A stretch of 64,000 bases of DNA, taken from NCBI GenBank assembly GCA_964016885.1, contig OZ024743.1:202430001-202494000 (forward strand), read 5' to 3'. The notes beneath the pieces are model-generated. The model saw only the letters and a list, made by a program, of their open reading frames with translations, was not told the origin of the DNA and ran no database searches. The DNA comes from Eledone cirrhosa (lineage: Eukaryota). The translations under genes were made by a program, and so were the position numbers. Position 1 is the first letter of the stretch. The number at the start of each line of letters is the position of its first letter. Positions 2,004-60,700 of this stretch are shown here, in pieces.

Positions 2004-3303
2004 GCACATAGATACATACATACGCAGTCAATGTACCGCATTCCACGTATAATCTTTCAAATCTCACATACGTACGGCAACTCAAACAGAATTAAATAGC
2101 ACAGCGTTTTCGTATGTTTTCTTTCTTTTTTTGGCTTTTTCGCCTTTAATTTTCTATTATTACCCTGATTAGGTGCACATTGTCAAGTTGGGTGTACCTC
2201 ACCTGGTAGTCATTTCTCATCAGGTGTTTATACCTTACCTGGTATGTGTACCACCACAGGTAGTTTACAATTCAAAACCTTCACAAGAAAGATGTCGAAA
2301 AATATATTCTGTCTCAACATACATGATGAACATTCATGATTCTCCACAAATATCTTTATATGTAACTACTGTATTCTTTATTCCAAATAATCTTCTATCT
2401 TCCTTTTTATTCTTTACAATTTTTAATATCCCTATTCATTATAACACATTTATATACATTTCGTCCCATGAAAAACTCATTATCTTAACATTAGTATCTC
2501 TAAATGTCTATCATTTTAATACGTTTCCTAACTTTTAAAAATAGGTATCTAGAACGTTCCTGGCGAACATCTCGTGTTTGTTTCTATATTATATTTCAAA
2601 CCTTACTTTACATCATAACTCTATGTATTCTTATATTCCAGCATCGTTCAGCGAGTCTGTTGGTTTCTTGTGAAAAAATAGCATTTACTTAGAATTAATA
2701 TGATTGAAGGTATTGTTGGCTGCTATTTCTTGCAAGACAAGCTACCACGTAGGAGCTCGATTGTGGGTTGGTGAACGTATTAATTTTTGTTTATATTTGA
2801 CAACATAGAAAGACCATACAATTAATCAAATTGTTGTGGAATTCTGAATATGATGGTTTTGTTAAGAACTAATGATTTTTTCTCTGTGGTGTTTCGTGCT
2901 CTTTGCAGTTTAAAGCATTTCAACAGCCTACTTTTGTAAATGCTTAGTCAATCAGCGGGGATTTGGTGAGATTGTAAGTCTGATGGAGTAGTTTCATAGT
3001 AGTTTCTATTAAATAGTATATAACTGTCATGTTTACAAAGAAATTTATATTTGACATTAGTTATCTAATGTTACATATAGGATTCTGTGGTTTTATGTTG
3101 CTGATGAAGTTTTTAAATCTAATGTTTGTGTAAAGAATACTTTCTATTGATGGTAGAGAAATTCTAGAAACGTCGATCGATTGAAGGACTTTATTATATG
3201 AAACTAAGCATAAATGACTAATATGGGAATATAACATTTCTAAATAAATATCATATGAAACTTAACAGAGAATATGATATATATATACACATATATGCTA
3301 TAT

Positions 3304-3360
<57 letters not shown>

Positions 3361-4044
3361 TGTTTATTTACGAACATAATATTTAAAGAAGTCTCTTTTC
3401 ATTATACTCACCGATTTTACATTTATGCGTAAATAACTAGCTCTTATAATCAGGTAAAATCATGTTCAATCTGGCCTATTCTATTTTATCGATACTTTTT
3501 ATCGAACAAATCACGTGATGTATTACTTGAAATCTTCAATATTATTATTTTGGGAAAAAAATAAAATGTTAGTTTTATGCTGTCTTCTAATTATTTTAGT
3601 TGTTATATGCTGGAGTTATTTTTCTATTTGATCGTTTGTGTTTCGTGATATCAGCTAAATTAAGTGAAGCAATAAGAATGGTTACTGCCATTATGTGTGG
3701 AGCACATCAGGTTTTTTTCGTCTTTGTTGTGTTGTTTTGTAAGAAAAAGAATCAATATTATAGTTGTATATTTATTGCTGCTGTTGTTGTTAGATATTAT
3801 CCACACAGGTTTGGCTCAGTTTGTACCGACAGACCTAATATCAATGTGTTATAGTTGTGACCATCCTGAAATATGTTCTGGCATAGTTTGTCTAGAATCA
3901 CATTAGCCTATCGTCTATGTTTAAAAATAAAAATAAACAAAGTATCTCTGAATTTCAGAGATAACTGTCTAATACTTCGAAAAACGTAGACGAATACACA
4001 TACATGCTTGTCTTCTAATTAACTCGAAGACCATAGTCTGTTGA

Positions 4045-4219
4045 TATTATTGGTAGAGGGTCGGACGCTATGGTTTCCAGCAAAGAGTTACGTCCCTTTA
4101 TGGTCTGAGTTCAAATCCCGCCGAGGTTAACTTTGCCTTTCATCCTTACGAGGTCGATAAAATATAGTACCAGTATTGTACCGGTGATTTGCTGGCCTTG
4201 TGTCAAAAGTAGAAACATT
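4045..4219 (+). mobile_element. tRNA-derived SINE with a Meta-like central domain
   Basis: B-box-like GAGTTCAAATCCC followed by GCCGAGGTTAACTTTGCCTTTCATCCTTACGAGGTCGATAAAAT..GTACCAG. At least 8 copies occur in the window. Confidence 0.8.
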
Positions 4220-4430
4220 TATTTTTGCTGCTGTATTTATGTTGTTTTGGAGGATATTAGAATTTTCAAACATTGTCTACATTTTAGAGACTAAATTGGG
4301 AGTAAATCTTAGAGGCCCCATTTGGGGTATTTTAAATCTGGCAGAGGCTATTCCTTTCCAGGGCAGAATACAACCGAATACTTACAGCGAAAGTAGAAAG
4401 AGAGCGAGAAAGTGAAAGAATAGAGTGATA

Positions 4431-4495
<65 letters not shown>

Positions 4496-4947
4496 TGTGA
4501 GTGCAAGTGTGATAAGGAATATGAGTCAACGACAGAAATGGAATTTATTGATCTCAGAACGATGAAAAGCAAAGGTAACCTCGACGAGATTTCATCTCAG
4601 CGCAGAGGTCCAAAAGAAATACGGAAGTATTTTTAATCAAGCGCCCTACTTGATTTGCCAATTTGTCCCCACACATTATGACTCCATATATTGGCTGTTA
4701 TGATTTTATAATGTATTTTGATGGTGTTTATTCAGATAATCTCGAGTGGGTATTAAAGGATTTATTAAATATTAGACATTGATGCAATAATAGGCGTGTG
4801 GATATGACCTTAAGTCAAGTACATCATGATTCCAGGTTCTATTCTATTGTGCAAACATTCTCTACTCGAGGTTAGACCTGAACAATCTCTCCTGAGTAAA
4901 TTTTGAGTGCAAAATCTATTTAGATGGCTGCTGTATGTATACAAACA

Positions 4948-5569
4948 TGGTGGCTGCCAACTCGTTTTCGAGTACGGCGACTACTTTATATCCATGTAGG
5001 AGAACCCCTACCGATGCGCTGAAAGAGTGTGACTTTTTAGTCCAGCCAGCGACTTGAAAACTCTGGTACAAACACTACACCTGTGACAATTATTGACACA
5101 TAGTGCTGGGACCATGGTACCATGTGACGACAAGTGCAGAGAGATCTCCAGATATAAAGCAATGCCTGTGCCGTGAAGCTTTTATAGTGAGCAAAGGCAC
5201 TGCACAAAGCCAGTCCCACTCTCTTAACCAAGATGATATTTACCAAAAAGAAGAACAAGTCAACATCATTGGATACCATCAGGGTTGCAGGTGTTATATC
5301 AGAGTTTTCCTTCTCCTAGAATTCTGCTTTGACAAAGGCTAAGGGGTCATCTCGCCCGGTGATTTTGGATGGCCATTGACTCTTAAGAGCTCCTTTTCCC
5401 TTTGACAGGTTTTGTTTTTAGTCCTGCAGGATGTCCAAAGTCACCCTACTCATCAAGAAACCTTGGTGGGGTTGCCAGTTTAGTCGCCAACGACCCGACC
5501 ATGGGACAGGTTATACTGGGATACATGTTACCAGTAGCACCAACTGGTGACCTGACATACATACATACA

Positions 5570-5603
<34 letters not shown>

Positions 5604-5888
5604 CATACATAGAAACATACATGCATACATGATGATGGCTGCCCCCTCGTTATAGAGTGTGGCCATTGCACGATATAAGATTATTAATAATTATCAATTA
5701 AGCTATCGTGCAATGCCTGCGCGTGAAGATTATTTTTAAAGTGAGGAAAACTGTGCACTGAGCCAATCCCTCTCTCTGAGCGACAGTAGCTATAACCCGA
5801 AAAGAAGAAAATATCAACATCATCGGTAACTACTGAGCCGCAGGTTTTATGTCGGAACTATCCCAGTTTCCTGAGTTGCCTTCTCCTA
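4948..5888 (-). mobile_element. Nested cluster of RTE-tailed (CATA)n-associated elements (4948-5345 diverged copy; 5365-5555; 5633-5888)
   Basis: Segments align by eye with 1359-1710 and 1790-1930 and are separated by (CATA)n tracts. Confidence 0.65.
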
Positions 5889-6907
5889 CATACATACAAA
5901 CATACATACATACAGAGACACTCAGACACATACATAATGACATATCTATATATCTATGTATATATATGTGCGTGTGTGTATGTGTGCGCTTGTGTTTGTG
6001 TGTGTGTATGTGAGTGAGTGTGCTGTGTGTGTGTGTGTGTGTGGGTGGGTGTGTGTCTGTGCGTGTGTGTGTGTGGATGGGTGTGTGTCTGTGTGTGTGT
6101 GTGTGTGTATATATGTGTGTATGTGTGTGTGTGTGTCCAGCCTGAACTTTCAAAACATGAAATAGAAATAGGTATAAGAAATTCTCAAACAAAAACAGCC
6201 CGAAATGTGATTTTGTTCTTTTCCTCTTCTTTGATGTTATGACTTTTGTTATCTACATACCTTTACGAGTAGCGATGATGTCTGTTAACTATTAATATAT
6301 ATTTTCTCCTTCAATAAAAAGTATATGTGCTATAACCCTATGATCCCCATATCTTATATTTCCTTAAATGCTCCCATTATTCCTAATTTCGTTGAATTGT
6401 CAGATAGTAGTGTACTTTACTTTTTTAATCCTCTGTAAAATCCCAGAAAGCACGTTTTATTACACTGGATCATTTCAATAGTTGTATATTTCTCTTAGGC
6501 ATTTAAGGTTTTGATAGCTATTGATAAAATGTCTTTCTACTTTCTAAATTTATTGCATTTGTTAAATTTTTTATAGTCCAAATTAAACCCTGATTGATAC
6601 TTCTGAGATTTCCATACGCTATCTTATATAACTTTGCGATTGCATCTCATTTTCTTTAACACGATTTATTTTATGCTTTTTCCCCTCTACATATAAAATT
6701 TCAAAGGCATTTTGGTCGTTTTAATTTTCTATTTTCGTTTTTGACTATTTTCTTTCAACAAAAGCAATACCATGAAATGCAAATAAGATTATTACTGGGG
6801 TTGTTACGTTAAGTAGATTATATCGGTAGAAATATAATGACTTTCATTACATTAGAAATCGCATTTACATATATATATATATATATATTTCTACATAAAA
6901 TGCAATA

Positions 6908-11198: not shown

Positions 11199-11415
11199 AA
11201 GGTATATTACTAGGAAAAACAAACGACTAAGCAAGAAGTAAAGGTAAGAGGAGAGAGATTTATTTAGAGTCCGTTTATTAAAATATGTTTTAATACAATA
11301 TCAGTCTACAAGCGGTAATTGCATATTTTTATACACAATTGCAAGCATTACATAAAATATTGCACTTCATCATAGTTGAATGTGAGGTCGGTGCATCTTT
11401 CAGTCCCACCATACC

Positions 11416-12651
11416 ATGAACAAGTTAGCTATGTTGTTCATGGTATGGTGGGACAGTAGACTTAAACTAAAACTTAATGAACAATTAGAAGACAGCTTAA
11501 CCCTGATAATGTACTCCCGCTACGTAGATGATATAAACATCGTAGTTAAGACACCCCCACTAAAGAACAGTCAGGAACCAGAGAAAAACACAATGGAAAG
11601 CATCCAGCAAATAGCAAACTCCATCCACCAGAGCATTAGAGTTACTATAGACTACCCAAGTAGACACCCCAACCATCGATTACCTGTACTAGACACAGAG
11701 CTCTGGTTAGATACTATTAACAACCAAAAACAAATCCTCCATTCCCATTATGCCAAACCCATGACTTCCAAACATCTGATCCACCGAAACTCGGCCATTT
11801 CGGACCATACCAAAATCAACATACTGATTGCGGATTTGGTACGGGTGATGAGAAATGTGTCCCGCATGTGCAACCCCGAAGAACTAGAGAGACACATACA
11901 ACACTTCATCCACCGTATGCAGTTCTCTGGCTACAATCAGAGAGATAGAATCAGAGTGTATAAAGGAGCCAGAACCAAATGGGAAAAAATGGTAAATAAT
12001 GACATAAATGGGACCTGCCCCTTGTATAGGAGCAAATTTTGGAATAGAATAGAAAGAACTAAGAACAAGGCCAATAGAATAAACTCATGGTATGATAGCA
12101 ATAAATACCAGAGTGTAATGTTCATCAATACAACCCCTAGAGGCGAACTAGCCTACAAATTTAGAAGAGCCCTAAAGAAACATAATCTCAATATTAAGAT
12201 AGTAGAAAGACCTGGTACCTCCGTAAAAACACTTATTAGCAAGACATACCCGTTCCAAAGACCCTCATGTATAGATAAGAAATGTATAACCTGTAAAATA
12301 AGCCCCCATATTAACTGTAAAACTAGAAATGTAGTATATAGCATAAGATGTACTGAAGGACAATGTAGAAACAAAAATATAGTGTACATAGGTGAGACAG
12401 CTCGTAGTATAGGGGAACGAATAAATGAACACTGGCGAGACCTCCAAGATAGTAAAGAATCATCTGTGCTCTACCAACATGCTAAGATAGAACACAGGGG
12501 TAAATTAGAGAGCATAGAAATAAAAATAGAATCCACACACAAGAAAGACGCAATGTTTAGGAAAATTACAGAGGCAGTAAGCATAAAAGAATTAAAACCA
12601 AAATTAAATAGAAAATATGAGTGGAACAGCAACATCACAACTTACAATTAA
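11416..12651 (+). CDS. PLE protein C-terminal part: RT (RYVDD, thumb), Cys-rich linker, GIY-YIG endonuclease
   Basis: Motifs YSRYVDD, LPVLD, CIDKKCITC...NCKTRNVVYSIRC...YIGETARSIGERINEH...EAVSI...PKLN. The ATG at 11416 lies in the inverted hairpin arm, so it is not the native start. Confidence 0.9.
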   Translation: MNKLAMLFMVWWDSRLKLKLNEQLEDSLTLIMYSRYVDDINIVVKTPPLKNSQEPEKNTMESIQQIANSIHQSIRVTIDYPSRHPNHRLPVLDTELWLDTINNQKQILHSHYAKPMTSKHLIHRNSAISDHTKINILIADLVRVMRNVSRMCNPEELERHIQHFIHRMQFSGYNQRDRIRVYKGARTKWEKMVNNDINGTCPLYRSKFWNRIERTKNKANRINSWYDSNKYQSVMFINTTPRGELAYKFRRALKKHNLNIKIVERPGTSVKTLISKTYPFQRPSCIDKKCITCKISPHINCKTRNVVYSIRCTEGQCRNKNIVYIGETARSIGERINEHWRDLQDSKESSVLYQHAKIEHRGKLESIEIKIESTHKKDAMFRKITEAVSIKELKPKLNRKYEWNSNITTYN

Positions 12652-12937
12652 GGACAAAATGAAAACACACACACACATAGAACAAACAACTTACAATTGA
12701 AAACACACACAAAATGAAAACACACACAAGACAAAATGAAAACACACACACACATAGAACAAACAACCAACCAACAACAAATAAATAAATAAACAAACAA
12801 ATATAAATAGAAAAATAGAAAAATGAACACAAACACACACAGACACCCGGATGTGGCGCATGCGCAAACTGAACACGCAAACAAAATGGCGTAGGATAGA
12901 AGAAAGGAAAGGCACAGAAACGAAGAAAGAAATCCCC

Positions 12938-12982
12938 AGTCACTGAAGAGGTCACAGAGTGTGTGACGAAAGAACTATGACT
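12938..12982 (+). ncRNA. Minimal type I hammerhead ribozyme
   Basis: AGTCA-CTGAAGA-G-GTCACA(GAGTG)TGTGAC-GAAA-GAAC-TA-TGACT; stems I and II pair. Confidence 0.8.
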
Positions 12983-13195: not shown

Positions 13196-13290
<95 letters not shown>

Positions 13291-13463
13291 AAAACAAAGG
13301 AATTGTGGTAAGGAACCAGATGGACCATAACTCACGAGAGTACTCAATGCTTAGGGTAGTAGAGTGGGAAATAGGAAAAAGTATGACCGTTTCGACGGCT
13401 ATTTCTGTCCAGAAATAGCCGTCGAAACGGCTTGAGCTCTGCCGTCGTGGTCATACTTTTTCC

Positions 13464-13466
<3 letters not shown>
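13291..13466 (-). mobile_element. PLE pseudo-LTR 3' fragment folded into a hairpin (family A)
   Basis: Homologous to 28376, 33383, 34537 and 60509. Palindrome centred at ~13408 and flanked by (TA)n. Confidence 0.8.
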
Positions 13467-13575: not shown

Positions 13576-13641
13576 ATATATATATATATAAAATATTAAA
13601 CAAATAATGAATAAACAATTCCTTATATTAAACAAAAAAAG

Positions 13642-13796
13642 TTCATTATTTAACGATCGTTTCTAGGGTATATATGTGTTATAATTGGTATGCATATTCA
13701 ACAGATCTATGTACAAAATTATACAAAATTATACAAATTATCAAGATTAAATATACATACCTAACACATATATACGCCGTCTTCAGAAATAATGAA
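13642..13796 (-). ncRNA. Type I hammerhead ribozyme (mirror copy in the left arm)
   Basis: Reverse complement of 20335-20489. Confidence 0.8.
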
Positions 13797-14614
13797 GTAT
13801 ATTTATTGATAATAACAACAATTCAAAATTTCAGTTCAAAATTGACCAATGAAAACACAAAGGGTTAAAAGCAGTTCGGTGTGTGTATATACATGTAAAA
13901 TCCTTACACATATTTTACAAAAATGTATGTATAACTTGTATACGCATACTAAAAAGATGGATGCAAACACAAAATTTCAAGGTTAATATCTCTGTAAGCT
14001 TAAAATGCGCTGATAAGATGCGCATTGATACTTATGGAGTCAAGCACATAAATATATTTTTTCATACTCACACATATCAGTACAATCACACATACACGCG
14101 CGTATATGCATAAATATACACATAACCACGAACATGCAAACACACACACACCCCCACTCACATTTATATATGTGGATATAAAATCATAAGCACATGGATA
14201 TTAAATCACTCACATAAAACACTGGCACACACATTTCAAGATCAAGATACAGAAATTAGGTGGGAGGGGGGGGAGGGGTCAGTATTCAATTGTCTGAGCA
14301 GACTGCCTAATATAAATGTATCTATAAATTAAGAAAAATAAAAAAATAAAACAATAAAATATAATAAATATAATATAATATACATACACATACAGATATA
14401 TACACATACATACATGTACGCGCACATAGAAATATTTACGCATACACACATACACACATACATATACAGTCATACACACACATACACTTACACGAACATA
14501 CACATACACATATATAAAGATATATATATACACACACACACACACGCAACACATACACACATACACATATATATAAAAAAAATAAATAATAAAGATATAT
14601 ATCCATATATATAT

Positions 14615-14663
<49 letters not shown>

Positions 14664-14740
14664 TACACATACATCTAAATATACATACACATACATACAC
14701 ACATACATGTACATACATGTACATACATATACGCACATCG

Positions 14741-14787
<47 letters not shown>

Positions 14788-15090
14788 TAGACATATAGAT
14801 ACATACACACACAACTTACATACACACATATATATATATAGATGTACATTCATACATAGAATTAGATATATAATCATACATACATATGCACCTACTTATA
14901 CTCATATATATAAATACATACGCTTCCATATATGCGTATATACATAAAAAACACTACAACCTCACCTAACTCAGACATACAAATAAAAATAATAATAAAA
15001 AGGCATATGTATATAGATACACACACGCATTAATCGAGATATATATATATATACACACATACATACACATATATATATATACATATATAT

Positions 15091-15131
<41 letters not shown>

Positions 15132-15220
15132 TACACTCATACATATATATATATATATATATATAAACATATATATCCCCACACACTCATACCACCATAA
15201 ATACACATACAAACACCCAC

Positions 15221-15253
<33 letters not shown>

Positions 15254-15258
15254 TACAC

Positions 15259-15291
<33 letters not shown>

Positions 15292-17282
15292 TAAAAAACA
15301 GACATGCACATATATATATATATATATATTTTTTTACACTCATATATACACATATTATATATACATACACAACCTCACTTATACACATATACACATAAGT
15401 TATATTATAATAATAAAGAATAATATACATATATATATATATACATATACATATATATATATATATATATATACATACATACATACACATACATACATAC
15501 ACATAAACATATACATACATAAATACACACATACGAATAAAGACATATATTCACACATAGACACCTATATATATATATATATATATCTATATATACATAT
15601 ACATATATATATATACATATATACACATATACATATACATACACACACACACACACACACAGACACATATACACACTCACATATATACATGTGTATATGT
15701 GTGTGTGCGCACATACACATATATACACACTCACATACAAACACACATAAAACACATACATATGCATACGTGCACAGACACACATATATATCACATAGAT
15801 ACGAAGATAAACATATAAATAGAGAGACATACATATATATACCACACACATACACATACATACATACACACGCATATACATATACACATATATATATACA
15901 TATATATATTCCTATATATACAAGCATACACATACATACACATATATACACATACATACACATATACATACAACACATTCACATACACATACATATATAA
16001 TGCATATATATACATATATATACATACATATGTACACTCATATATACACACGCAATCTTACATTCATATTTGCATGCGCATATATGTATTTTTATATTTA
16101 GATATAAATACCCAAACCTATATAGACACCTACCTACATATATATTCATACATAGACGCTTACAAATATAGATGATAATAGTATGGGGGAAAGGGGGGGT
16201 TTGGAGAAGGGGATCAAAGTAAATATATGTTTCAAGAAACATATAATATTTTCCGTATCTTTATTCAATGTATGTTCTTACATATTTTCAGTGCTAGGAA
16301 ATACGACAAACAAGAACTAAGGCAAAATCTATGCATCTCAAAATAAATAAGTATACCATTAATCATATGTTAACTAAACCAAAGATAGTCAACATATTGA
16401 TTTCTAAGGTGTAAATTAGTTAGGTTTATAATATTTGAAGCAGAATTTTGAAGTCAAACAGTAGTAGATTATTAATTACAGTATAACTAAATTAAAGTTA
16501 ATAACGTTATGGTATCAATATTAGGAAATGAATTTAGTAATAGGGAAAAGAAACCCAAATAAAAATAAAATAAAGTATTACATCGGTAGTAGCATATAAA
16601 TTATATGTTAACTAAATTAAAAATTATATATTTATTTCAATAGTATATGTTAATTAGTATATGTTAATTAGGTATACAATACATAAAGCAGATATTGTAT
16701 TTCATCAATAGCATAATATAATTATATGCAAATAGAAATCACAATTAATACGCATACATATACATATACATACACATACACATACACATACATATACATA
16801 TACATTTAATTAATATTTTATTACAGATGAGAATATAAAATATTATGTAATCATAAATTGTGAAAAACCTTTAAATATTACTAATATATACTTAGTAATT
16901 TAATTTATAGATTAATTTTAATTTATTTAAACCTTTTATTATAACTCTTTTACAGATAAAATATAACAAAATAATATCATGTATCCAATGACAGAGAAAT
17001 AATTTTTAGTATTATAGACCTAATTAATATACATTTTGGAAATATATTTATTATTTGGTTTTAGTTTTAATCAACCTAAAAATTTTAATTTTAATTTGCT
17101 TAAAATTAGTATCCTTATACAGACGAATTGCAGAATGTCATGTAATCATAGAATGGGATGTGTTTTGGATATATACCTAGTTAATATATTCTGTGCAATT
17201 TTTTGAAAAAGATATGTATATGTATATGTGTATGTGTATGTGTGTGTGTGTATGTGTATCTGTATGTATGTATATATGTGTA

Positions 17283-17323
<41 letters not shown>

Positions 17324-18782
17324 ATATGTATGTGTATGTGTATGTGTATGTATATGTATATGTATGCGTATTAATTGTGATTTCTATTTGCATATAATTA
17401 TATTATGCTATTGATGAAATACAATATCTGCTTTATGTATTGTATACCTAATTAACATATACTAATTAACATATACTATTGAAATAAATATATAATTTTT
17501 AATTTAGTTAACATATAATTTATATGCTACTACCGATGTAATACTTTATTTTATTTTTATTTGGGTTTCTTTTCCCTATTACTAAATTCATTTCCTAATA
17601 TTGATACCATAACGTTATTAACTTTAATTTAGTTATACTGTAATTAATAATCTACTACTGTTTGACTTCAAAATTCTGCTTCAAATATTATAAACCTAAC
17701 TAATTTACACCTTAGAAATCAATATGTTGACTATCTTTGGTTTAGTTAACATATGATTAATGGTATACTTATTTATTTTGAGATGCATAGATTTTGCCTT
17801 AGTTCTTGTTTGTCGTATTTCCTAGCACTGAAAATATGTAAGAACATACATTGAATAAAGATACGGAAAATATTATATGTTTCTTGAAACATATATTTAC
17901 TTTGATCCCCTTCTCCAAACCCCCCCTTTCCCCCATACTATTATCATCTATATTTGTAAGCGTCTATGTATGAATATATATGTAGGTAGGTGTCTATATA
18001 GGTTTGGGTATTTATATCTAAATATAAAAATACATATATGCGCATGCAAATATGAATGTAAGATTGCGTGTGTATATATGAGTGTACATATGTATGTATA
18101 TATATGTATATATATGCATTATATATGTATGTGTATGTGAATGTGTTGTATGTATATGTGTATGTATGTGTATATATGTGTATGTATGTGTATGCTTGTA
18201 TATATAGGAATATATATATGTATATATATATGTGTATATGTATATGCGTGTGTATGTATGTATGTGTATGTGTGTTGTATATATATGTATGTCTCTCTAT
18301 TTATATGTTTATCTTCGTATCTATGTGATATATATGTGTGTCTGTGCACGTATGCATATGTATGTGTTTTATGTGTGTTTGTATGTGAGTGTGTATATAT
18401 GTGTATGTGCGCACACACACATATACACATGTATATATGTGAGTGTGTATATGTGTCTGTGTGTGTGTGTGTGTGTGTATGTATATGTATATGTGTATAT
18501 ATGTATATATATATATGTATATGTATATATAGATATATATATATATATATATAGGTGTCTATGTGTGAATATATGTCTTTATTCGTATGTGTGTATTTAT
18601 GTATGTATATGTTTATGTGTATGTATGTATGTGTATGTATGTATGTATATATATATATATATATATATGTATATGTATATATATATATATGTATATTATT
18701 CTTTATTATTATAATATAACTTATGTGTATATGTGTATAAGTGAGGTTGTGTATGTATATATAATATGTGTATATATGAGTG

Positions 18783-18813
<31 letters not shown>

Positions 18814-18831
18814 GTGCATGTCTGTTTTTTA

Positions 18832-18864
<33 letters not shown>

Positions 18865-18869
18865 GTGTA

Positions 18870-18902
<33 letters not shown>

Positions 18903-18993
18903 GTGGGTGTTTGTATGTGTATTTATGGTGGTATGAGTGTGTGGGGATATATATGTTTATATATATATATATATATATATATGTATGAGTGTA

Positions 18994-19034
<41 letters not shown>

Positions 19035-19339
19035 ATATATATGTATATATATATATATGTGTATGTATGTGTGTATATATATATATATCTCGATTAATGC
19101 GTGTGTGTATGTATATACATATGCCTTTTTATTATTATTTTTATTTGTATGTCTGAGTTAGGTGAGGTTGTAGTGTTTTTTATGTATATACGCATATATG
19201 GAAGCGTATGTATTTATATATATGAGTATAAGTAGGTGCATATGTATGTATGATTATATATCTAATTCTATGTATGAATGTACATCTATATATATATATG
19301 TGTGTATGTAAGTTGTGTGTGTATGTATCTATATGTCTA

Positions 19340-19386
<47 letters not shown>

Positions 19387-19463
19387 CGATGTGCGTATAT
19401 GTATGTACATGTATGTACATGTATGTGTGTATGTATGTGTATGTATATTTAGATGTATGTGTA

Positions 19464-19516
<53 letters not shown>

Positions 19517-20334
19517 ATATATATATGGATATATATCTTTATTATTTATTTTTTTTATATATATGTGTATGTGTGTATGTGTTGCGTGTGTGTGTGTGTG
19601 TATATATATATCTTTATATATGTGTATGTGTATGTTCGTGTAAGTGTATGTGTGTGTATGACTGTATATGTATGTGTGTATGTGTGTATGCGTAAATATT
19701 TCTATGTGCGCGTACATGTATGTATGTGTATATATCTGTATGTGTATGTATATTATATTATATTTATTATATTTTATTGTTTTATTTTTTTATTTTTCTT
19801 AATTTATAGATACATTTATATTAGGCAGTCTGCTCAGACAATTGAATACTGACCCCTCCCCCCCCTCCCACCTAATTTCTGTATCTTGATCTTGAAATGT
19901 GTGTGCCAGTGTTTTATGTGAGTGATTTAATATCCATGTGCTTATGATTTTATATCCACATATATAAATGTGAGTGGGGGTGTGTGTGTGTTTGCATGTT
20001 CGTGGTTATGTGTATATTTATGCATATACGCGCGTGTATGTGTGATTGTACTGATATGTGTGAGTATGAAAAAATATATTTATGTGCTTGACTCCATAAG
20101 TATCAATGCGCATCTTATCAGCGCATTTTAAGCTTACAGAGATATTAACCTTGAAATTTTGTGTTTGCATCCATCTTTTTAGTATGCGTATACAAGTTAT
20201 ACATACATTTTTGTAAAATATGTGTAAGGATTTTACATGTATATACACACACCGAACTGCTTTTAACCCTTTGTGTTTTCATTGGTCAATTTTGAACTGA
20301 AATTTTGAATTGTTGTTATTATCAATAAATATAC

Positions 20335-20489
20335 TTCATTATTTCTGAAGACGGCGTATATATGTGTTAGGTATGTATATTTAATCTTGATAATTTGTAT
20401 AATTTTGTATAATTTTGTACATAGATCTGTTGAATATGCATACCAATTATAACACATATATACCCTAGAAACGATCGTTAAATAATGAA
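20335..20489 (+). ncRNA. Type I hammerhead ribozyme with long stem II and palindromic stem III
   Basis: TTCATTATTT-CTGAAGA-..GTATATATGTGTTA...TAACACATATATAC..-GAAAC-GATC-GTT-AAATAATGAA; perfect 10-bp stem I. Confidence 0.85.
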
Positions 20490-20699
20490 CTTTTTTTGTT
20501 TAATATAAGGAATTGTTTATTCATTATTTGTTTAATATTTTATCTTGACTCTGTATACCGTTTATCTTTCACCGAAAGTGGTTTTTCATTACATCTCTTC
20601 TTTCCATGATATCCGGAATACATTGAGTTCTTCATACGGATTGGACACTACCGTAAACTCTTGGTAGATTTATCTACATATATATATATATATATATAT

Positions 20700-21696
<997 letters not shown>

Positions 21697-28375: not shown

Positions 28376-28998
28376 TAACGAAGGAAATGTGGTAAGGAAC
28401 TAGATGGACCATAACGCACCAAAGTTCTTAATACTTAGGGTAGTAGAGTGGGTACTAGGAACAAGTATGACCCCTACGGCAGAGCTCAAGCCGTTTCGAC
28501 GGCTATTTCTGGACTAAATAAGAATTTTTAGCCTCGTAAATAAATAGCCGAACTTCTCAGTGGGTATTACCTTATATGGAAACATAGTAATTTTCAAGTG
28601 GATTGGTCAAAAATTTGTTGTAGAGACAGATCATGGCATTTGGTGGGCGGTAGCGGTGGCTGAACTTGCCGGTAGAACAAAGAGGGATTGGGGGAAACCC
28701 GGTGAAACGTTGAAATTGAAATCAATACAGATTTTATATCAATTTCAACGTTTCACCAGGTTTCCCCCACTGCCTCTTTGTTCTAACGGCACGTTCAGCC
28801 TCCTCTACTTCCCACCAAATGCCATGATCTGTCTTTACAACAAATGTTTGACCAATCCTCTTGACAATTACTATCTTCCCATATAAGGTAGTACCCCCTG
28901 AGAAGTTCGGCTATTTATTTACGAGGCTAAAAATTCTTATTTACTCCAGAAATAGCCGTCGAAACGCCGTGAGATATGCCGTCGGGGTCATACTTGTT

Positions 28999-28999
<1 letters not shown>
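28376..28999. mobile_element. Family A pseudo-LTR fold-back with ~260-bp arms
   Basis: Turn at ~28730 (CGTTGAAATTGA...TCAATTTCAACG). Both ends abut (TA)n. Confidence 0.85.
28893..28988 (+). ncRNA. Type I hammerhead motif of family A (core CTGAGAA; mirror copy at ~28470-28565)
   Basis: ACCCC-CTGAGAA-G..CGGCTATTT...AAATAGCCG.C-GAAAC...GCC-GTC-GGGGT; stem III ACGGC/GCCGT is intact in other copies. Confidence 0.7.
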
Positions 29000-29029
<30 letters not shown>

Positions 29030-33201: not shown

Positions 33202-33205
<4 letters not shown>

Positions 33206-33368
33206 GATAAATCTACCAAGAGTTTACGGTAGTGTCAAATCCGTATGAAGAACTCAATGTAGTCCGGATATCATGGAAAGAAGAGATGCAATGAAAAATC
33301 ACTTTCGGTGAAAGATAAACGGAATACAGAGTCAAGATAAAATATTAAAAAAATAATGAATAAAACAA
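33202..33368 (-). mobile_element. Short 3'-terminal copy of the family that forms the 7-kb inverted repeat
   Basis: Reverse complement of ~20515-20678, flanked by (TA)n. Confidence 0.85.
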
Positions 33369-33382
33369 TATATATATATATA

Positions 33383-33577
33383 TAGGAAAAAGTGTGACCC
33401 CGACGGCAGAGCTCAGCCCGTTTCGACGGCTCTTTCTGAACCCAGAAATAGCCGTCGAAACAGCTTGAGCTATGCCGTCGGGGTCACACTTTTTCCTATT
33501 TCCCACTCTACTACCCTAAGTATTGAGTACTTTGGTACGTTATGGTCCATCTGGTTCCTTACCACAATTCCTTCGTT
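33383..33577 (+). mobile_element. Family A pseudo-LTR hairpin copy
   Basis: Palindrome 33383-33498 plus a tail ending TTCCTTCGTT(AT)n. Confidence 0.85.
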
Positions 33578-39328: not shown

Positions 39329-41975
39329 CTACAGCCGCATGACCAGGGTAGGCCCACTCACACGGGCCATTCTCGCCACATTCACCCACCTTTCAGAAAA
39401 TGTACTGGGGGACAGCACTTCTCTCTTCACCCTCACCTTCCTTTCGAAGTGAAACTTGAAAAAGTTGATGAGGGATTGGCCGAAGAGAAAAGTGTCTGTC
39501 TTCAGTCCTTTCAACCTCGTCCAGCATACAACCTCTTTCGCTACTGCCACCAAACAGAGGAAAACTACCTGCCCTTCCTGGCCAAAAGAAGGAGGCGGGT
39601 CAATCTTCACTATGGACTCGGCCGATAGCCGGATCCGTTGTACATGCGACAACAGCTGTTCAACATAACTCCACAAGTCAGTAATGCACGGACACTGGAC
39701 GAGTGCGTGCAGAACGGTTCCGTCGCTCTGCGCGCATCTCGGACAGGTTCGTCTGACAGCACTTCCGTGTCTGTAGAGTTTACCTCGAACCGGCAGTGCC
39801 CCCCGGTAGCACTGCCAAGCGAGGGATTTTTGGAAATTATCCATCGTCCCCGGCTCGAAAGTCCTCCGGTACAGACTGGTTAGTTCGACTTCGTTGACTC
39901 CCAGAGCCTCTCCGAGTGCGTTGTAGCACTTGCCCACCACTAATCCTCTATAGAACTCGAGAGTGGAAGTTCCACTGACCGCATTGCCAGCCTGGTAGAG
40001 GGCAGTGAGTGCATGGCAACATTCCAGATGCCAGTCACCCAGTCTCGGTCTCTTCTTGACCCAGGACTGCAACTCAGTCAAAGAAACGAGCTGCGGAAAG
40101 GCCCTTCTGACAAACGGCGACCACCCCTGTTCACCGTTTAGGCAGAATAATTAGAGATGCCGCATCCTCAGCGCGTGCTTGCGCATCATTAGCCACGGCA
40201 TGCCCAGCCCTCCACGTAGAGTGTGCTGACAGCAGATGGACCGCCTCACCAGCGGAACCTGACCCCTCCACAAGAATTTGAAGAGGAGCCGCTCCAAGAT
40301 GGCGACGCGCGAACGGGTCAAGGGACGACGGTCAGACGGTAGTAGATGACGGATGCGATGTATCCGTTCGCTACCTCCGCCCGACCTTTCAGTGATAGCT
40401 TCATCCCAGCCCATTTCTGGGTTAGACTGGCTACCCTGCCCGTCACCTCGTCCCAATTCTTATCCACCTGGAGGTCTGGCCCGAACCAAACCCGTAGCAA
40501 CTTTACCGGTCCGTCCGTCCAGCGCCTAACGACGCTGTTGGACGGCATGGACTTGCCTCTCCAGGTGCCGAGTTGCAAGCCCACTGACTTTTCCGGGTTA
40601 AATTTTGCTCCCGTCAACCTTTCATATTCCTCCAATAAGTTGCCGACCACCTCGATTTCTGAGGTGTCCGACACTATCACGGTGATGTCGTCCGCATAAA
40701 CCGGCACAGTCTTTCCGCGTCCCGGTTCGAGCGGGATGCCCTGCAACAGCTCCAGCTTCCGCAGTAAAGGCTTCCTCCGAACAACCGAGCAAAATGTTGG
40801 CGAAAGGCCTCATACCTCCGCTTGGAATCGCTCAGCTCGTGTCATCTCGGTCCGTCAAAGACCGAATCGTGGTTTTATTACCACGCTGCGCCTCTGCCAC
40901 ACGGGACCATCGAACAGCTTTGGTTCCCTCCTTTCTCTGTGCACGCGACTTAGCTCTGACAATGCAACCTTCGTGTTTCGCATTGCGATTCTAGCCGCTA
41001 GCACGTCAGTTGCAATGCCACTACCAATAGCCTCGTCTAACTTATCTACCAACACCCCCTCCTTTCTATTTTTCTCTAACGCTACTTCTTTGCTAAATTC
41101 TATCGAGATTACTCTAATCTCTCTTTTGAGAGCCCCCTACCATCTATTGTTGACGACTCCCCCTGTCAACTTTTTCTCAACTAAATTGTCGACCTGGTCT
41201 CTGTAAGCCTTACCTGCCGGAAATGACATGTTTAGCTTCCAGTAACCAGGTCCTACCCTACGCCTCTTAACTAGGTCGACCATACAGATCACAAACTTGT
41301 GATCTGAATAGGTGACCGTTTCAAAACGTGGACAGCTTACACTATTTCTGTCTATTTTCTTAATGAATATCCTGTCTATATACGATCTAGATGACTCTAT
41401 GCTGTTAGTGCAGGTCCACTGGCGCATTAGGGAAATCTAGTCGGTACCTGTCAGACAGTTGGAACTGGCTGATCAGGTTCCTGAGGCTTTTGCAACCCCC
41501 GCTCCTATCGGATACTCCCACACAGTCCCAGTGTGCGTCTCAGATGCCGTTCCAGTCCCCCGTTAACAGTAAAGGGCGAGACGTACCGAGAAAGGCTTCC
41601 CGGCGTCTAAAGAAGTCCGGCCGCCCTGCCCCAGTAGGAGCATAGACGGCCACCAGTCTAAAGGCACCACCTTCGTTATTGTTCACAACCAACCACCAAC
41701 TTCCCGTCCGGGTCCCATAAGATCGACCTTACCTCGTGATCCAGGCCTTTCCTAAACAGCACTGCCACCCCGCCTCCCATTCCTGGCCGGCTAACAGATG
41801 CAAAGATCTGATAGTCGTCGAAAATGGGGGCTAGTGCGCGCGTGTCAGAAATCCTGGTCTCGCTGACGGCAATTACATACATTTCTATAGACCCGAGGTC
41901 GTTGAGCAGGTGGCCCTGCTTCCAGGACGACCCCAGGCCTCGAACATTTAAACATCCTACTCTTAATACGGCCAT
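39329..41975 (-). pseudogene. Tx1/L1 ORF2: APE endonuclease, RT C-terminal part and zf-RVT, frameshifted
   Basis: CLNVRGL, SETR, GDWN, YIDRIF, SDH, PGYWKLN, YADD, LSLKGR, CPRC..TVLHALVQC. RT subdomains upstream of YADD are missing near 40770. Confidence 0.9.
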
Positions 41976-42899
41976 ATTGGCAGGTTAAAAAGACAGAGAG
42001 GAAGGTTTACTTACCTTCCGGGCTCTTGTGAAGGTCGGTTTGTTCGACCACCATAGTTGGTGAGGTTTCTTTTAGGAGCCCCTTTAAAAGACTTGAAGTG
42101 GGTTTTACGTTCGGGGTTCCCACGTCCCGAGGAAAGCTGTCTCGCATTTCTTTGAATATATCGATTGACATTCGCACCTGAACCAAATCTTCCGGCACGC
42201 GAAATGTGCTCGATTTAAAAATGTCTCCCTCTTTTTGTATATTTTCACTTCGTGCTACTAGGGCCATCTGTTCCTCGTTGGCCCTCCTGACGAGCACGAA
42301 GTTTTGTATGTTTTGTTGGTGTGATTATTTTGTTTGCGTGGCTGTGGTGGTGATGGTTTTGGTCGTGTTGTTTCGGTTGTGTCTGTGTTTATTGTGAGTG
42401 CGGTGTCGGTGGTTTCAGATGTTTGTGTGTATATTTTTTCTTGCGTCTGTTTAGGTTTGCGTTTGGGGGATTCTGGTGATGGTGATGGTGGTGTTGATGT
42501 TGGTGTTATTGGAGAGATGTTTGCGTGGGTGGTGTCTGCGTTTTTTATTGGGGGTGATTTTGTGCTTTGTTGTGTTTTTTGTGTTTCGTTTTTTGTTTCC
42601 TTTTTGTGTTTCCTTTTTTGTATTTTGTTTTTTTTTTGGTTTTCCCTCATCTTCACTACTGGTAGATGAGGGGTCTGTGTATGTAAGTGTGTCTGTATGT
42701 ATGTTTATGGTTTTATTGGTGTGTGTATTTTTGGGGGGGAGGGGGAATTTGACAGCTTTCCTCGTTTCCCCCCTGGGAGGTCAATGTTGGTGATGGTCTT
42801 TCTATTTGTTTTGTTGTTGGTGGTTTTGCCGGTGCTGGTGTTGGTTGTGGTCCTCTCCGGCGTCGGCAGGAGTGGAGCCTTTCAACCCCCTGCCTCTTT

Positions 42900-43982
42900 C
42901 AGCAGTTGAGGGCAGAAGGCTCGCAAATGGGTTTTTTCCCCATAAACAAATCACTGCGGCCTTTTGCCTTCGGTCATAATGTGAATGACCGTCCCATTCT
43001 GAAGGCGAATGTGGTCCAGGATTGTCTTCACATTCTCGGGCCTGATCTGGAGAAGGATCTCCAGGTCAACCCCAGACCAGTTCTCTCTGGCCGTTCTGGT
43101 CCCCTCTGGCCGTTCTGGTCCCCTCCACAATCACACAACCCAGAAACCACCACATGTCAAGTCCTGGTGGGATTCTGGGAATGCGGAGACGGGCCGTTCT
43201 TTTTCCCATGTGGGAAGGGTACATTATGACCTTGCTGGTTTTGCAAGGAGTCATAGCGAGGGCTTCTGACTTGAACAACACTGAAATGGTGCCGTACTGT
43301 CTGCCCCTCTCTTTGTATTCGGTGTCTTCTCTGATGCACCTCAGCGCGACTTCGACATCTGCTTGTGGGATTAAAGCTGCCCTTTTGGTTTGTGCTGAGA
43401 TGCATCTATAATGCACCGTTCTGCGCTCCGCTGCCTCAATAGGTTCTACCGGGAGAGTTAAGTTGGCCCAGGTTTGCTCTTGCTTGATGAGCTTCCATGC
43501 CTGGGCCAACTTTTCATCTTTGCTTGAGAGGTCCATGTTGAAACAAGGTCTCTTTTTTGCTGCTTCCGCAGCGAAACTGTTCTTCTTGTTTTCGTTGGGG
43601 GTGTTGTTGTCGTTGTCGTTGTTCTTGTTGGTGGTGTTGTTATCACTGTCGCTGTTATCGTTGTTGTATTTGTTGCCACCGTTGTTCTCGGTGCAGTTGG
43701 CATTGTTTGTGTTGGTGTTGTTGCTATTTGTTTTCATGTTAGTGTTGTTTATATTGCTGCATTTGTCATTTTTTTTCCGTTATCACTATTTTCGTCGTCG
43801 CTGTTACTGTCATTTCTTTCAAAATTAGAGTTCTCATTGGTATCATTGGTGTCTTTCTTTACCTTGTTTGTGGTCGTGTTTGTGTTATCAATGTGTGTTA
43901 ATTTCGCTGTAGCGCTCCTCTCAACTTCTACGTCGTTGTCGCACGACAGCAGACACATCGCTGGTTGAGGTGGCTCAGCCAC
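42900..43982 (-). pseudogene. Tx1/L1 ORF1 remnant (Asn/Thr-rich N-terminus, decayed CCHC knuckle)
   Basis: Upstream of ORF2 on the same strand. EGKRPQ*FVYGEKTHLRAFCP near 42910-42970, and a 19-bp duplication near 43085-43125. Confidence 0.7.
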
Positions 43983-53017: not shown

Positions 53018-53515
53018 TGTAGCGACGTGGTTAGTCAGTCTGGTCACTACTTCTGATCAGATCCGAGAATAGCCCTTAGAAGGACTGTTATCGCATACGG
53101 TCTGATCAGATCTGAAGATAGCCCTTAAAAGGACTGTTGTCGCATATAGCCCCTAAAAGAACTGTTGAGGATGGACAGACGAAAGCATAAGTTGAAAGGA
53201 CGAAGTAAGGCGAGATGTAAATTCGATCAGCTATTTATTTTCACATGAAGCGACGATACGAGGTACAAGGCGTGTGTAAGTGACAAGCGTGGCAGAGGCG
53301 AGGAACAACGATACGCGGGTTGACTCTGCCAAATGTCGACTGCTGAAGTGTTTGGAACCACTCTATTTATACAGGAATAATCGTTTGATGTTTAGCCGCT
53401 GTGTAGGCGTTTATACTGGTAGCTTTTAAGGGTTCTTTTATTTCACGTTGAGGTAGCTAGCTAACAGGTAGATGGCGCTGTATATTTCACAGATGTTATT
53501 TCCGATGGCTGTACA
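53018..53515 (-). repeat. 3' LTR
   Basis: TG...CA termini; PPT-like GGCAGGGGGCTAA adjacent on minus; internal ~48-bp repeats. Confidence 0.95.
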
Positions 53516-54440
53516 TTAGCCCCCTGCCAGATCCTTTGTACAAAAAAAGAGCGAAATATCGTATAGTAATGGGCCAGTGGTGCATTTGTCATGACAATAG
53601 CCCCAGGAGTGACCAGCACGTTGTGAAAATTTGTGATCATCGAGTACAGGACAGAGTTGATGTAGAGATGATATGGCAAGATGTGTGTGTCAGGAAGAGA
53701 AAAAAGAAATAAACAATAAAATGACTTTGACCAGGTTTATGCAGGCGTGATGAATGAGCCTGTTGCAATTTGGGTTGAGCTGCCTGTGAATTGCGTGACA
53801 AAAAGTCTAACTGGTCAGTGAAGATAACTGTAATGTGTGAACTGAATGGCCGTAAGCATGCTGCCTAAAAGTAACAGTTTGCTCCACCACATATGACTTG
53901 AGCGAATGCATGTGGTAAAAAAATAGCGAGGCATTCTCGAGCCATTGAGTGATTGTGTACGTGAGAAAAGAAGGCCAATGTTTTGAGGATGCGATTTGTG
54001 AAATGCGTGATCAAAGAGAAAACATTTTGTAGTGTAAGAGTTAGAGGGACGCAAATATCTATTGCTCCGTGTATAAGGTGAAACAAACGTGGTTTTGTAG
54101 TGTGCATGAAAAACAGAATATGTACACGCCTTGTATGTATATAAAAATTATGGCAATTACACAATAAATGTTACAGAACAAGAAAAATAAAAATGTTTGC
54201 AAAACAAGAGAGAGAAGACAAAAAATGTTATACACAATGATATACACAATGTTTGTTCTTAAATAGTGTTTGTAATAAATAATGTTCATAATAAATAATG
54301 TACTTCGTGACATGAGCACATGGTCACTAAAAATTGCAATTGTTCAAGCAGAAAGTTCATTGTATTTGGAACTGGAAATAGTAAACACAAGAAAAATGGA
54401 AATGTTTTGCACGAAGAGTGATTAAGAAACACACTTGAGG

Positions 54441-57400: not shown

Positions 57401-57500
57401 CTTTTGCCCTAGATTAGTGAAACAGGAATAACACTAACCTGGGCTCCTGTATCCACGAGGTAACGGATGCCTGTCGCCTGGTCGTTAATAAAAAATAGAC
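54441..57500 (-). pseudogene. pol: pol (protease, RT, RNase H, integrase), multiply frameshifted
   Basis: [60 protein letters not shown]. Confidence 0.95.
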
Positions 57501-57549
57501 GACTTTTCTTTTCAGTACCAGGGGTGAACGTCGTCGCCAGGCCCTGGGT

Positions 57550-57822
57550 GGTATTCCGGAAAGAACACGGGGCTTTGCACTTAGATGCCTGTGCGCCGAA
57601 ATTTTAGTGATACCAGCAGAGGTGACCAGGCACACAATTTTGACTGGGACTTCTGGATCTTCGACTGTGAAATAGCCTGGATTGACTGTTGCTGCGTCGC
57701 CGGTGTGTTTGAAAGGTCAGGTTCTCTACTTGATTTGAGAGGGCTTTAATTTGACCAGCCCGCTCTCTGATCATAGCCCGCAGCTCTGAAATATCGGCCT
57801 CTGTCGTTGGCTGTATGTCCAT
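57550..57822 (-). pseudogene. gag: gag C-terminal remnant; capsid region apparently deleted
   Basis: Only ~300 bp lie between the PBS and the CHCC finger; RSRSPS linker present. Confidence 0.75.
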
Positions 57823-57861
57823 GTTGGTATTTTCTAAGGTGCTGTCTGGTTGCGCGTTCGA

Positions 57862-57879
57862 CTCACGTTCGGGTCACCA
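57862..57879 (-). promoter_or_regulatory. Primer-binding site complementary to the tRNA-Trp 3' end
   Basis: TGGTGACCCGAACGTGAG, 2 nt inside the 5' LTR boundary. Confidence 0.85.
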
Positions 57880-57881
57880 AT

Positions 57882-58366
57882 TGTAGCGACGTGGTCACTA
57901 CTTCTGATCAGATCCGAGAATAGCCCTTAGAAGGACTGTTATCGCATACGGTCTGATCAGATCTGAAGATAGCCCTTAAAAGGAATGTTGTCACATATAG
58001 CCCTTAAAAGAACTGTTGAGGATGGACAGACGAAAGCACAAGTTGAAAGGACGAAGCAAGGCGAGATGTAAATTCGATCAGCTATTTATGTTCACATGAA
58101 GCGACGATACGAGGTACAAGGCGTGTGTAAGTGACAAGCGTGGCAGAGGCGAGGAACAACGATACGCGGGTTGACTCTGCCAAATGTCGACTGCTGAAGT
58201 GTTTGGAACCACTCTATTTATACAGAAATAATCGTTTGATGTTTAGCCGCTGTGTAGGCGTTTATTCTGGTAGCTTTTAAGGATTCTTTTGTTTCACGTT
58301 GAGGTAGCTAGCTAACAGGTAGATGGCTCTGTATATTTGACAAATGTTATTTCCGGTGGCTGTAGA
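57882..58366 (-). repeat. 5' LTR
   Basis: Matches 53018-53515 with ~15 substitutions and one 13-bp indel (counted by eye). Confidence 0.95.
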
Positions 58367-60360: not shown

Positions 60361-60431
60361 TATTTTATCTGATGAAAACACAAATGTTATTGCATGATGA
60401 TATTTGTTTTTGAAATGCGCATAATAAAATA
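60361..60431 (+). ncRNA. Type I hammerhead ribozyme
   Basis: TATTTTAT-CTGATGA-AAACACAAATGTTAT...ATGATATTTGTTTTT-GAAA-TGCGCAT-A-ATAAAATA. Confidence 0.85.
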
Positions 60432-60508: not shown

Positions 60509-60700
60509 TAGGAACCAGTAAGACCCCGACAGCTGAGCTCAAGCCGTTTCGACGGCTAATTCTGGACTCGAATTAGCCGTCAAAACGGCTTGAGCTCAGC
60601 TGTCGGGGTCTTACTGGTTCCTATTACCCACTCTACTACCTCAAGTATTGAGTACTTTGGTGCGTTATGGTCCACCTGGTTCCTTACCACATTTCCTTCG

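Follow-up and report, generated by a model that had tools for sequence, protein, structure and literature searches.

A multi-kilobase inverted repeat in Eledone cirrhosa read as a 5'-truncated insertion of a Hydra-like Penelope element, probably from two cDNAs primed on one RNA

Penelope-like elements (PLEs) are described as leaving inverted, 5'-truncated copies with a tail on one side only, as carrying hammerhead ribozymes and as targeting (TA)n tracts, and the portion of PMC8557442 used here states the origin of the inverted copies and one-sided tails as open. The same portion lists an Octopus bimaculoides Hydra family, Hydra-1_Obim, of 2,507 bp and with no pseudo-long terminal repeat (pLTR) found, and a repeat annotation of O. 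vulgaris counts recently active Penelope-like families, with no detail of this kind in the portion cited (PMC13282606). Self-priming has been proposed for PLE inverted structures on the basis of palindromic junctions (PMC3846280, in the part cited here), and in vitro the protein of the Poseidon PLE cleaves and extends both target strands, starting inside the RNA at two sites, one at either end of the tail, and with no start-site difference between the strands (PMC11167929). Here we describe an inverted repeat at 13588-20678 of a 64,000-nucleotide stretch of the Eledone cirrhosa genome (assembly GCA_964016885.1, contig OZ024743.1, forward-strand positions 202,430,001 to 202,494,000; hereafter the window). 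Judged by its motifs and its relatives elsewhere in the 3.0-Gb assembly, which was the genome searched throughout, the repeat is an insertion of an autonomous Hydra-like Penelope element, inverted and truncated at its 5' end. We consider it probable that it is a recent head-to-head double insertion into (TA)n, made from two complementary DNAs (cDNAs) primed on one RNA.

The inverted repeat and its element family

Alignment of the left arm (13588-16798) with the right arm (17321-20543) gave 3,209 matches, 2 substitutions and 4 indels, the indels being of 2-4 nt each and all within microsatellite tracts; with such tracts masked, there were 0 differences over 1,266 unique columns. The paired arms are separated by a 522-bp spacer (16799-17320), and the right arm extends 135 bp past the paired part, to 20678. 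These dimensions bear out a preliminary description of this DNA, which had given arms of ~3.2 kb, a spacer of ~520 bp and a right arm ~135 bp longer whose end is also found at 33202. It had also placed the inner turn in TACA/TGTA microhomology, and this did not hold: the TACA tract is the left arm's counterpart of the right arm's TGTA tract, and the inner join consists of a 5-nt filler with at most one shared base. From 16804 to 17320 the spacer is the right arm's 5' continuation, a part present in the longer arm alone. The insertion is flanked on both sides by (TA)n, and no target-site duplication is readable. We conclude that the insertion is recent and that, taken singly, it is an ordinary PLE insertion in kind. 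Its features are as follows, with unit positions referring to a complete tandem unit of the same family, which is described below.

13588-16798, minus strand: left, tail-less arm; inverted 3' region, unit 6478 down to 3174, its outer end being fixed end A joined to (TA)n
13642-13796, minus strand: type I hammerhead of the left arm, sense on the minus strand
14380-16050, no strand: left-arm block rich in degenerate (TA)/(CA) microsatellite, with internal duplications ~68% alike
16799-16803, no strand: 5-nt filler at the head-to-head join, one additional copy of the local repeat; microhomology of at most 1 nt
16804-20678, plus strand: right arm, with the tail; direct copy truncated at its 5' end, covering unit 2651-6613 and beginning 55 bp past the stop codon of the open reading frame (ORF)
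18071-19690, no strand: right-arm block rich in degenerate (TA)/(TG) microsatellite, colinear with its counterparts in other copies
20281-20341, plus strand: candidate promoter; ATTGG at 20281-20285, then an initiator-like TCATT with its A at 20338 (unit 6273)
20335-20489, plus strand: type I hammerhead of the right arm, predicted to be cut between 20479 and 20480
20544-20678, plus strand: 135-nt tail between fixed ends A and B, continuing in tandem copies into the 5' region and ORF
20679-20700, no strand: (TA)n target tract of the right flank; the left-flank tract lies immediately before 13588
about 33202-33369, minus strand: separate short copy, 96% identical, of the tail plus ~32 nt, between (TA)n tracts

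The assembly bears the mark of a mollusc, with 39 matches to the haemocyanin beta-sandwich that stand in runs of seven on the sequence C1, a unit number like that of octopods. Searches of the assembly with the 451-bp end returned 1,418 candidates, of which 40 were scored, all at 100%, and searches with a body piece returned 1,544, of which 40 were scored, at 97-100%. Whether the body is linked to the hammerhead end elsewhere had been set as a test beforehand, and this linkage was found at many other loci. The tandem unit is 6,613 bp long (L033:2200-8812) and holds, in order, an ORF of 813 aa (unit 155-2596), ~3.7 kb of non-coding sequence, a hammerhead (unit 6270-6424) and the end at 6613. In a protein search 55/55 scored matches were open, full length and 99-100% identical; these were 55 of 118,231 first-look candidates, so the family has at least 55 intact copies. 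Upstream of intact ORFs, 36/38 stretches continue into a tandem partial copy, forming pLTRs, as is also seen in L031-L036. The window copy lost its ORF by 55 bp, and no reverse transcriptase (RT) ORF was found within 13588-20678; the earlier statement that the repeat has no RT is thus right for this copy and wrong for its family, which encodes an 813-aa RT and endonuclease.

The predicted model of this protein has a pLDDT (model confidence) of 82, and its four best structural matches are telomerase RTs (top Foldseek match TERT, E 2.8e-9). RT motifs lie at about aa 250-390 and endonuclease motifs after aa 690, which places the endonuclease at the C terminus. Reading by eye, we found the Hydra motifs DKT (a modified DKG), a CxCx5C linker, and CxxC and CxH around conserved E and N; an internal CCHH is not present in the ORF, as expected of the Hydra clade. 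The N-terminal RWK motif takes the form of a conservative variant, RWR, and most of 23 aligned relatives have RWK or RWR. Residues 478-579 (in L033) form a low-confidence, N/K/T-rich insert of ~100 aa between the thumb and the endonuclease linker, which is absent or shorter in most relatives and is reminiscent of the N-rich inserts of rotifer PLEs. A Pfam search of the 813-aa ORF gave no significant family, and a PDB sequence search with an alignment gave one weak RT match (E 0.0025, just above the default cut-off of 0.001). We conclude that this is an endonuclease-bearing (EN+) Penelope-like family with a single ORF for a telomerase-like RT and a GIY-YIG-type endonuclease; its likeness to the Hydra clade is suggested by motif agreement with the published clade description. 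The family is young and protein-coding, and the window repeat is one of many similar insertions.

The region downstream of the ORF is unusually long and is rich in microsatellite sequence. Strict repeats with a period of up to 6 make up 1,432 of the 7,091 bp of the insertion (20%) versus 9% of the rest of the window, and purine-pyrimidine alternating tracts make up 40% of the right arm; the preliminary description was therefore right to call the body rich in scrambled (TA)/(TG) sequence and overstated the case in calling it mostly microsatellite. In 59/59 stop-to-hammerhead spans of the family the 3' body is colinear with the ORF and directly downstream of it, the span measuring 3.1-4.3 kb. 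Nine related copies of sister subfamilies, picked from matches to a hammerhead pattern with an 80-110 nt spacer, have spans of 0.7-2.3 kb with 0-24% alternating tracts versus 45% in the window's family. An AT-rich unit of ~100 bp recurs in the young body and has homologues behind sister-subfamily ORFs, and the internal repeats of the microsatellite block are ~68% alike. We conclude that the ~4-kb microsatellite-rich 3' region is part of the element's own unit; it may well have grown in place, within the element, by internal duplication and microsatellite slippage. A retrotransposon 3' region can, on this evidence, grow several-fold by microsatellite accretion and yet still spread. As for the suggested route to microsatellite expansion, delivery by the family is real but small, and the idea of a major route was not upheld: 1,544 candidates of at most 1.55 kb amount to ~2.4 Mb, or 0.08% (~0.1%) of the genome, a rough figure that counts candidates and not copy numbers and leaves out older relatives.

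Fixed ends and the origin of the two arms

Copies of the family terminate precisely at one of two positions: A, at unit 6478 (window 20543), or B, at unit 6613 (window 20678). Either is then followed by (TA)n. Genome-wide there are 1,939 exact A-(TA)n junctions and 6,302 exact B-(TA)n junctions, with 0 for reversed-pattern controls; these patterns require TA, the ends as first read from individual loci having carried no such selection, and because only some subfamilies fit the A pattern, the A:B ratio means little. Within the first 75.7 Mb of the sequence C1, 17/21 A ends face a B end within 16 kb, which by chance would be expected at ~0.011 each, and no A-A or B-B pairs were found there.

We addressed the pairing of arms in a sample made up of 40 of the first 43 A ends on C1 (2 were omitted as lying inside another stretch and 1 was already in the set), with the arm ends read by eye and then tallied. 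A facing arm was present at 33 of these loci and absent at 6, with 1 left unclassified. Of the 33 facing arms 25 end at B, 8 run beyond the edge of the stretch read and 0 end at A. The tail-less (A) arm was longer by more than 100 nt in 12/33 pairs, longer by 11 nt in 1 and a full tandem in 3; the arms were equal within 3 nt in 10/33, and the tail-less arm was shorter, as in the window, in 7/33. Four pairs had no shared base at all. Among 24 head-to-head joins, 20 had an overlap of 0-8 nt and 4 had filler. The sole B-B pair, at L038, is part of a larger palindrome, the TA-rich flanks of which have 99% identity over ~970 bp; it may be a secondary duplication or an assembly artefact, and we set it aside.

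These counts are what we would expect if the element's protein nicks both target strands of a (TA)n tract and two cDNAs are primed on the same RNA at fixed sites A and B, 135 nt apart. Each cDNA would then extend toward the RNA 5' end and halt at a variable point, and the two cDNA ends would be joined through a 0-8 nt overlap or a short filler. In the window copy, the B-primed cDNA would have run for 3.9 kb and the A-primed one for 3.2 kb, so that 0.5 kb of spacer was left unpaired and the ORF was narrowly missed.

Whether both arms come from one template was judged from 59 arm pairs, 34 from loci that resemble the window's copy or either of its ends, counting the window itself, and 25 from the C1 sample, with microsatellite tracts masked and overlaps below 150 columns left out. 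The arms differ by at most 1.0% in 55/59 pairs, and by at most 0.25% in 52 of these, while median differences to other loci are 0.6-7.4%; 82 private variants are common to both arms of a pair. The concordant pairs include L043, L059 and L067, in which the A arm is the longer one. The 4/59 discordant pairs comprise two that are separate neighbouring copies (L063, L126) and two true adjacent mismatches (L049, L062), which may reflect a second template or subsequent conversion. The simplest reading of the arm identity is that one RNA was primed twice.

Several observations weigh against two primings on one RNA. Overlaps shorter than 200 nt have little power to tell templates apart; the head-to-head arms at L049:6279-6610 and L062:3030-4311 carry alleles of different subfamilies; and arm identity could stem from later gene conversion. 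The 6/40 A ends without a partner arm do not show the expected pairing, and the strict A-B asymmetry is left unexplained because the in vitro Poseidon assay showed no strand difference. At the window locus the sequence of the left arm is entirely contained in the right one, and 7/33 sampled pairs are nested in the same manner and 10/33 have equal 5' ends, all of which would be compatible with fold-back too.

Fold-back, or self-priming, in which one cDNA folds on itself and copies back to end A, was the doubling mechanism offered in the preliminary description and is the rival that survives best, although we regard it as unlikely. It accounts for the window's contained left arm, identical over the unique columns, for the 17/33 sampled pairs in which the tailed arm is longer or equal, and for the private variants that the arms have in common, and it has been put forward for other PLEs from palindromic junctions. 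A self-copying cDNA yields only an arm contained in the first, so that fold-back fails for the 12/33 pairs in which the tail-less arm is longer while the other arm holds the tail; nor can it give the 4 pairs without a shared base. It also offers no reason for the exact stop at A, and the window join has filler and at most 1 nt of homology. As the mechanism of the family, fold-back was thus not borne out, but the window locus alone fits it and two-strand priming alike and is not decisive.

A still less likely origin is two RNA molecules, or two sequential events, with a same-locus origin or later gene conversion making the arms alike. The mismatched arms of L049 and L062 are in its favor, as is the near identity of tandem copies inside one locus. 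However, at least 55 intact sources that differ by ~1% should often give discordant arms, and we saw 4/59, two of them separate neighbors; moreover, 10/33 pairs stop at the same base within 3 nt.

There is very little left for a non-autonomous PLE derivative or retrozyme with captured microsatellite cargo, which is largely refuted. The window copy has no ORF, the rotifer element Pen1 is described as having spacers of host origin between its ORF and pLTR (PMC3846280, in the part cited here), and many mini-palindromes of ~545 bp may derive from short ORF-less transcripts. Yet the colinearity of body and ORF in 59/59 spans, the start of the window copy 55 bp past the stop codon and the sister-subfamily homologues of the AT-rich body unit all stand against it. 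Of the earlier proposal of a non-autonomous PLE transcript or a very long 3' untranslated region, the Penelope-like origin and the long 3' untranslated region stood, and the non-autonomous cargo fell, as the body turned out to be the 3' region of a family that is autonomous and has 55 or more intact ORFs.

Finally, a sequencing fold-back chimera or misassembly has almost no likelihood, for although a test with public reads on 16150-17250 skipped 16743-16817 as repeat and leaves the inner junction uncovered, and L038 sits in its larger palindrome, there are 6 differences between the arms, the two flanks are not related, the outer ends fall on the exact family positions A and B, the same layout occurs on several chromosomes and the body is present in 4/4 public runs from 3 studies. 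We conclude that the inverted repeat is a real retro-insertion.

Hammerhead, short copies and surroundings

The well-formed hammerhead reported near the outer end of each arm was confirmed (20335-20489 on the plus strand, 13796-13642 on the minus strand). It is of type I, with a 10-bp stem I, a very long stem II (116 nt between the core halves, with a C.A at its base that is also present in PLE-X1_cBra) and a minimal, palindromic stem III. It folds as a three-way junction (z = -6.6 versus 200 shuffles), and in 16 aligned copies, hand-picked from the window's subfamily and sister subfamilies, the core is invariant and double changes occur at 7/43 predicted pairs. An Rfam scan of the window at gathering thresholds reported no hammerhead, a tRNA-like match at 1234-1289 being its only result. 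The pattern with the 80-110 nt spacer had 6,554 matches genome-wide (control 5); it misses the window's subfamily, with its 116 nt, so these matches count relatives only. The 3' strand of stem I has a second complementary partner just downstream (20480-20529). Neither this competing hairpin (z = -1.3) nor the fold of the tail (z = -1.7) is significant, and for an RNA starting at 20338 the predicted minimum-energy fold puts stem I into the hairpin; on these models the downstream partner is a possible off-switch.

Inner (5') ends accumulate at the start of the hammerhead: 25/72 lie at unit 6270-6276, in its first stem. The hotspot base is the A of TCATT (window 20338), 57 nt after an ATTGG box, and ATTGG also stands upstream of a sister-subfamily hammerhead in L158. 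Five close pairs of sister subfamilies, chosen for their short spacing, start in the same way. Hammerhead cleavage was considered as the source of short-arm 5' ends and rejected, as 0 of 38 inner ends beyond 6200 lie at the predicted cleavage site (unit 6410-6420); among stretches upstream of ORFs, 1/38 (L177) starts at the cut site.

The likeliest cause of the hotspot is a transcript 5' end, and we put the chances that a short pLTR transcript explains it at about even. We take ATTGG to be a reverse CCAAT box and TCATT to be initiator-like. The pLTRs of rotifers contain similar elements (PMC3846280, in the part cited). Two points weigh against a transcript start. None of the 38 stretches upstream of intact ORFs stops at 6270-6276, and most run past, so that this explanation needs template jumping, a multimeric or circular RNA, or a separate short transcript; and another hammerhead family in the window appears, by eye, to be truncated inside loop II. 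We tentatively extend two-strand priming to a fuller scheme, which we hold somewhat less likely to be right than wrong: every insertion of the family would consist of two cDNAs from one RNA on opposite strands, the hammerhead would overlap the transcription start, and short transcripts would give the ~545-bp mini-palindromes and long ones the multi-kb inverted repeats. If true, this scheme would supply in vivo evidence, on the scale of a genome, that speaks against self-priming; it would also show how autonomous PLEs can give rise to derivatives resembling retrozymes or miniature inverted-repeat transposable elements, and would make the family an ongoing source of large hairpin loci in a mollusc genome.

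It had further been proposed that the locus is a source of long double-stranded RNA with self-cleaving ends. A long RNA hairpin is plausible if the locus is transcribed. The putative promoters of the arms point outward, so only a host read-through transcript would span both arms, and no host gene was identified at the locus. The self-cleaving ends fail, since any one strand holds a single sense hammerhead, and pairing with the other arm, at -245.5 kcal/mol versus -48.2 for the ribozyme fold, is predicted to bury it in the duplex. The near-perfect multi-kb inverted repeats that the family leaves behind would be double-stranded RNA substrates wherever a host transcript reads through.

The window holds other elements of similar kinds. 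At 11386-12651 on the plus strand is the 3' part of another PLE-like ORF with a YVDD motif, a GIY-YIG-like end and no Pfam match, followed at about 12937-12982 (plus strand) by a compact hammerhead-like sequence, found by eye, and then by (TA)n. At 58590-59453 on the plus strand there is a second fragment of a Hydra-like endonuclease, which has 33% identity to the family protein, together with ~0.9 kb of 3' sequence and its own hammerhead at 60361-60431 (plus strand); an inverted pair of that hammerhead family occupies 20816-21478, ~135 bp to the right of the insertion studied here. A third hammerhead-like family is represented by mini-palindromes in which just one of the arms has a tail; they occur at about 13290-13465, 28378-29000, 33385-33570 and 60510-60700, and by eye their short arms seem to begin inside loop II. 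There are also a long terminal repeat (LTR) element at about 53041-58191, with 98% identical 300-bp repeats and RT and integrase domains, and a fragment resembling a long interspersed element at 39329-43779 (zf-RVT); the tRNA-like match at 1234-1289 on the minus strand (Rfam RF00005) is probably the head of a tRNA-derived short interspersed element.

Comparison with described elements

The Hydra clade, as set out in the portion of PMC8557442 used here, resembles the window's family in having a single ORF with an RT followed by a C-terminal GIY-YIG-type endonuclease, in the motifs DKT, CxCx5C, CxxC and CxH, in a type I hammerhead and a (TA)n target and, compared by eye, in its N terminus. The family differs in its unit of 6.6 kb versus 1.1-3.0 kb for the listed Hydra families (the clade description of 'generally <3 kb', which is descriptive and not diagnostic, does not fit its 6,613 bp), in its ~3.7 kb from stop to hammerhead, in a stem II that spans 116 nt when listed Hydra hammerheads total 80-100 nt with flanks, in having RWR for RWK, and in the N/K/T-rich insert before the endonuclease linker. 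With PLE insertions in general it has in common partial tandems that form pLTRs and an inverted, 5'-truncated head-to-head copy with a tail at one end; in contrast to the cited parts of those accounts, its tail is of 135 nt rather than 30-40, its inverted arms reach several kb, and A-with-B pairing and non-nested arm lengths have been counted (PMC8557442; PMC3846280).

The Poseidon element PAc is alike in its two internal RT starts bounding the tail, in the extension of both strands, in its AT-rich target and in having neither genomic nor RNA ends where the hammerhead cleaves (PMC11167929). The present family belongs to another clade, its two sites, separated by 135 nt, precede the start codon, and its pairing of A with B is strict in the genome, whereas the PAc assay in vitro had no such pairing. 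A young family in which exact junctions number in the thousands and intact ORFs at least 55 is a ready test set for PLE integration, and the 40-locus sample already separates fold-back from two-strand priming. Our literature search, which had most subscription papers outside its reach, found no paper that treats this family, counts A-B pairs or reports twin priming in PLEs.

L1 elements undergo twin priming, in which a further cDNA is started from the second target strand and the resulting inverted segment is attached through microhomology. The two L1 pieces derive from different parts of the RNA, and the position of the second start varies. Unlike this, both starts are fixed in the present family and the arms usually overlap, so that sequence is doubled.

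Non-LTR retrozymes, in the part of their description cited here, likewise carry a type I hammerhead of PLE origin, and the ORF-less mini-palindromes of the present family resemble them in content; unlike theirs, its hammerheads are inverted and not tandem, and the family encodes its own protein (bioRxiv 10.64898/2026.07.22.740005). Against all of these systems, what is new here is the size of the 3' region, the tail and stem II, together with counts that separate fold-back from two-strand priming.

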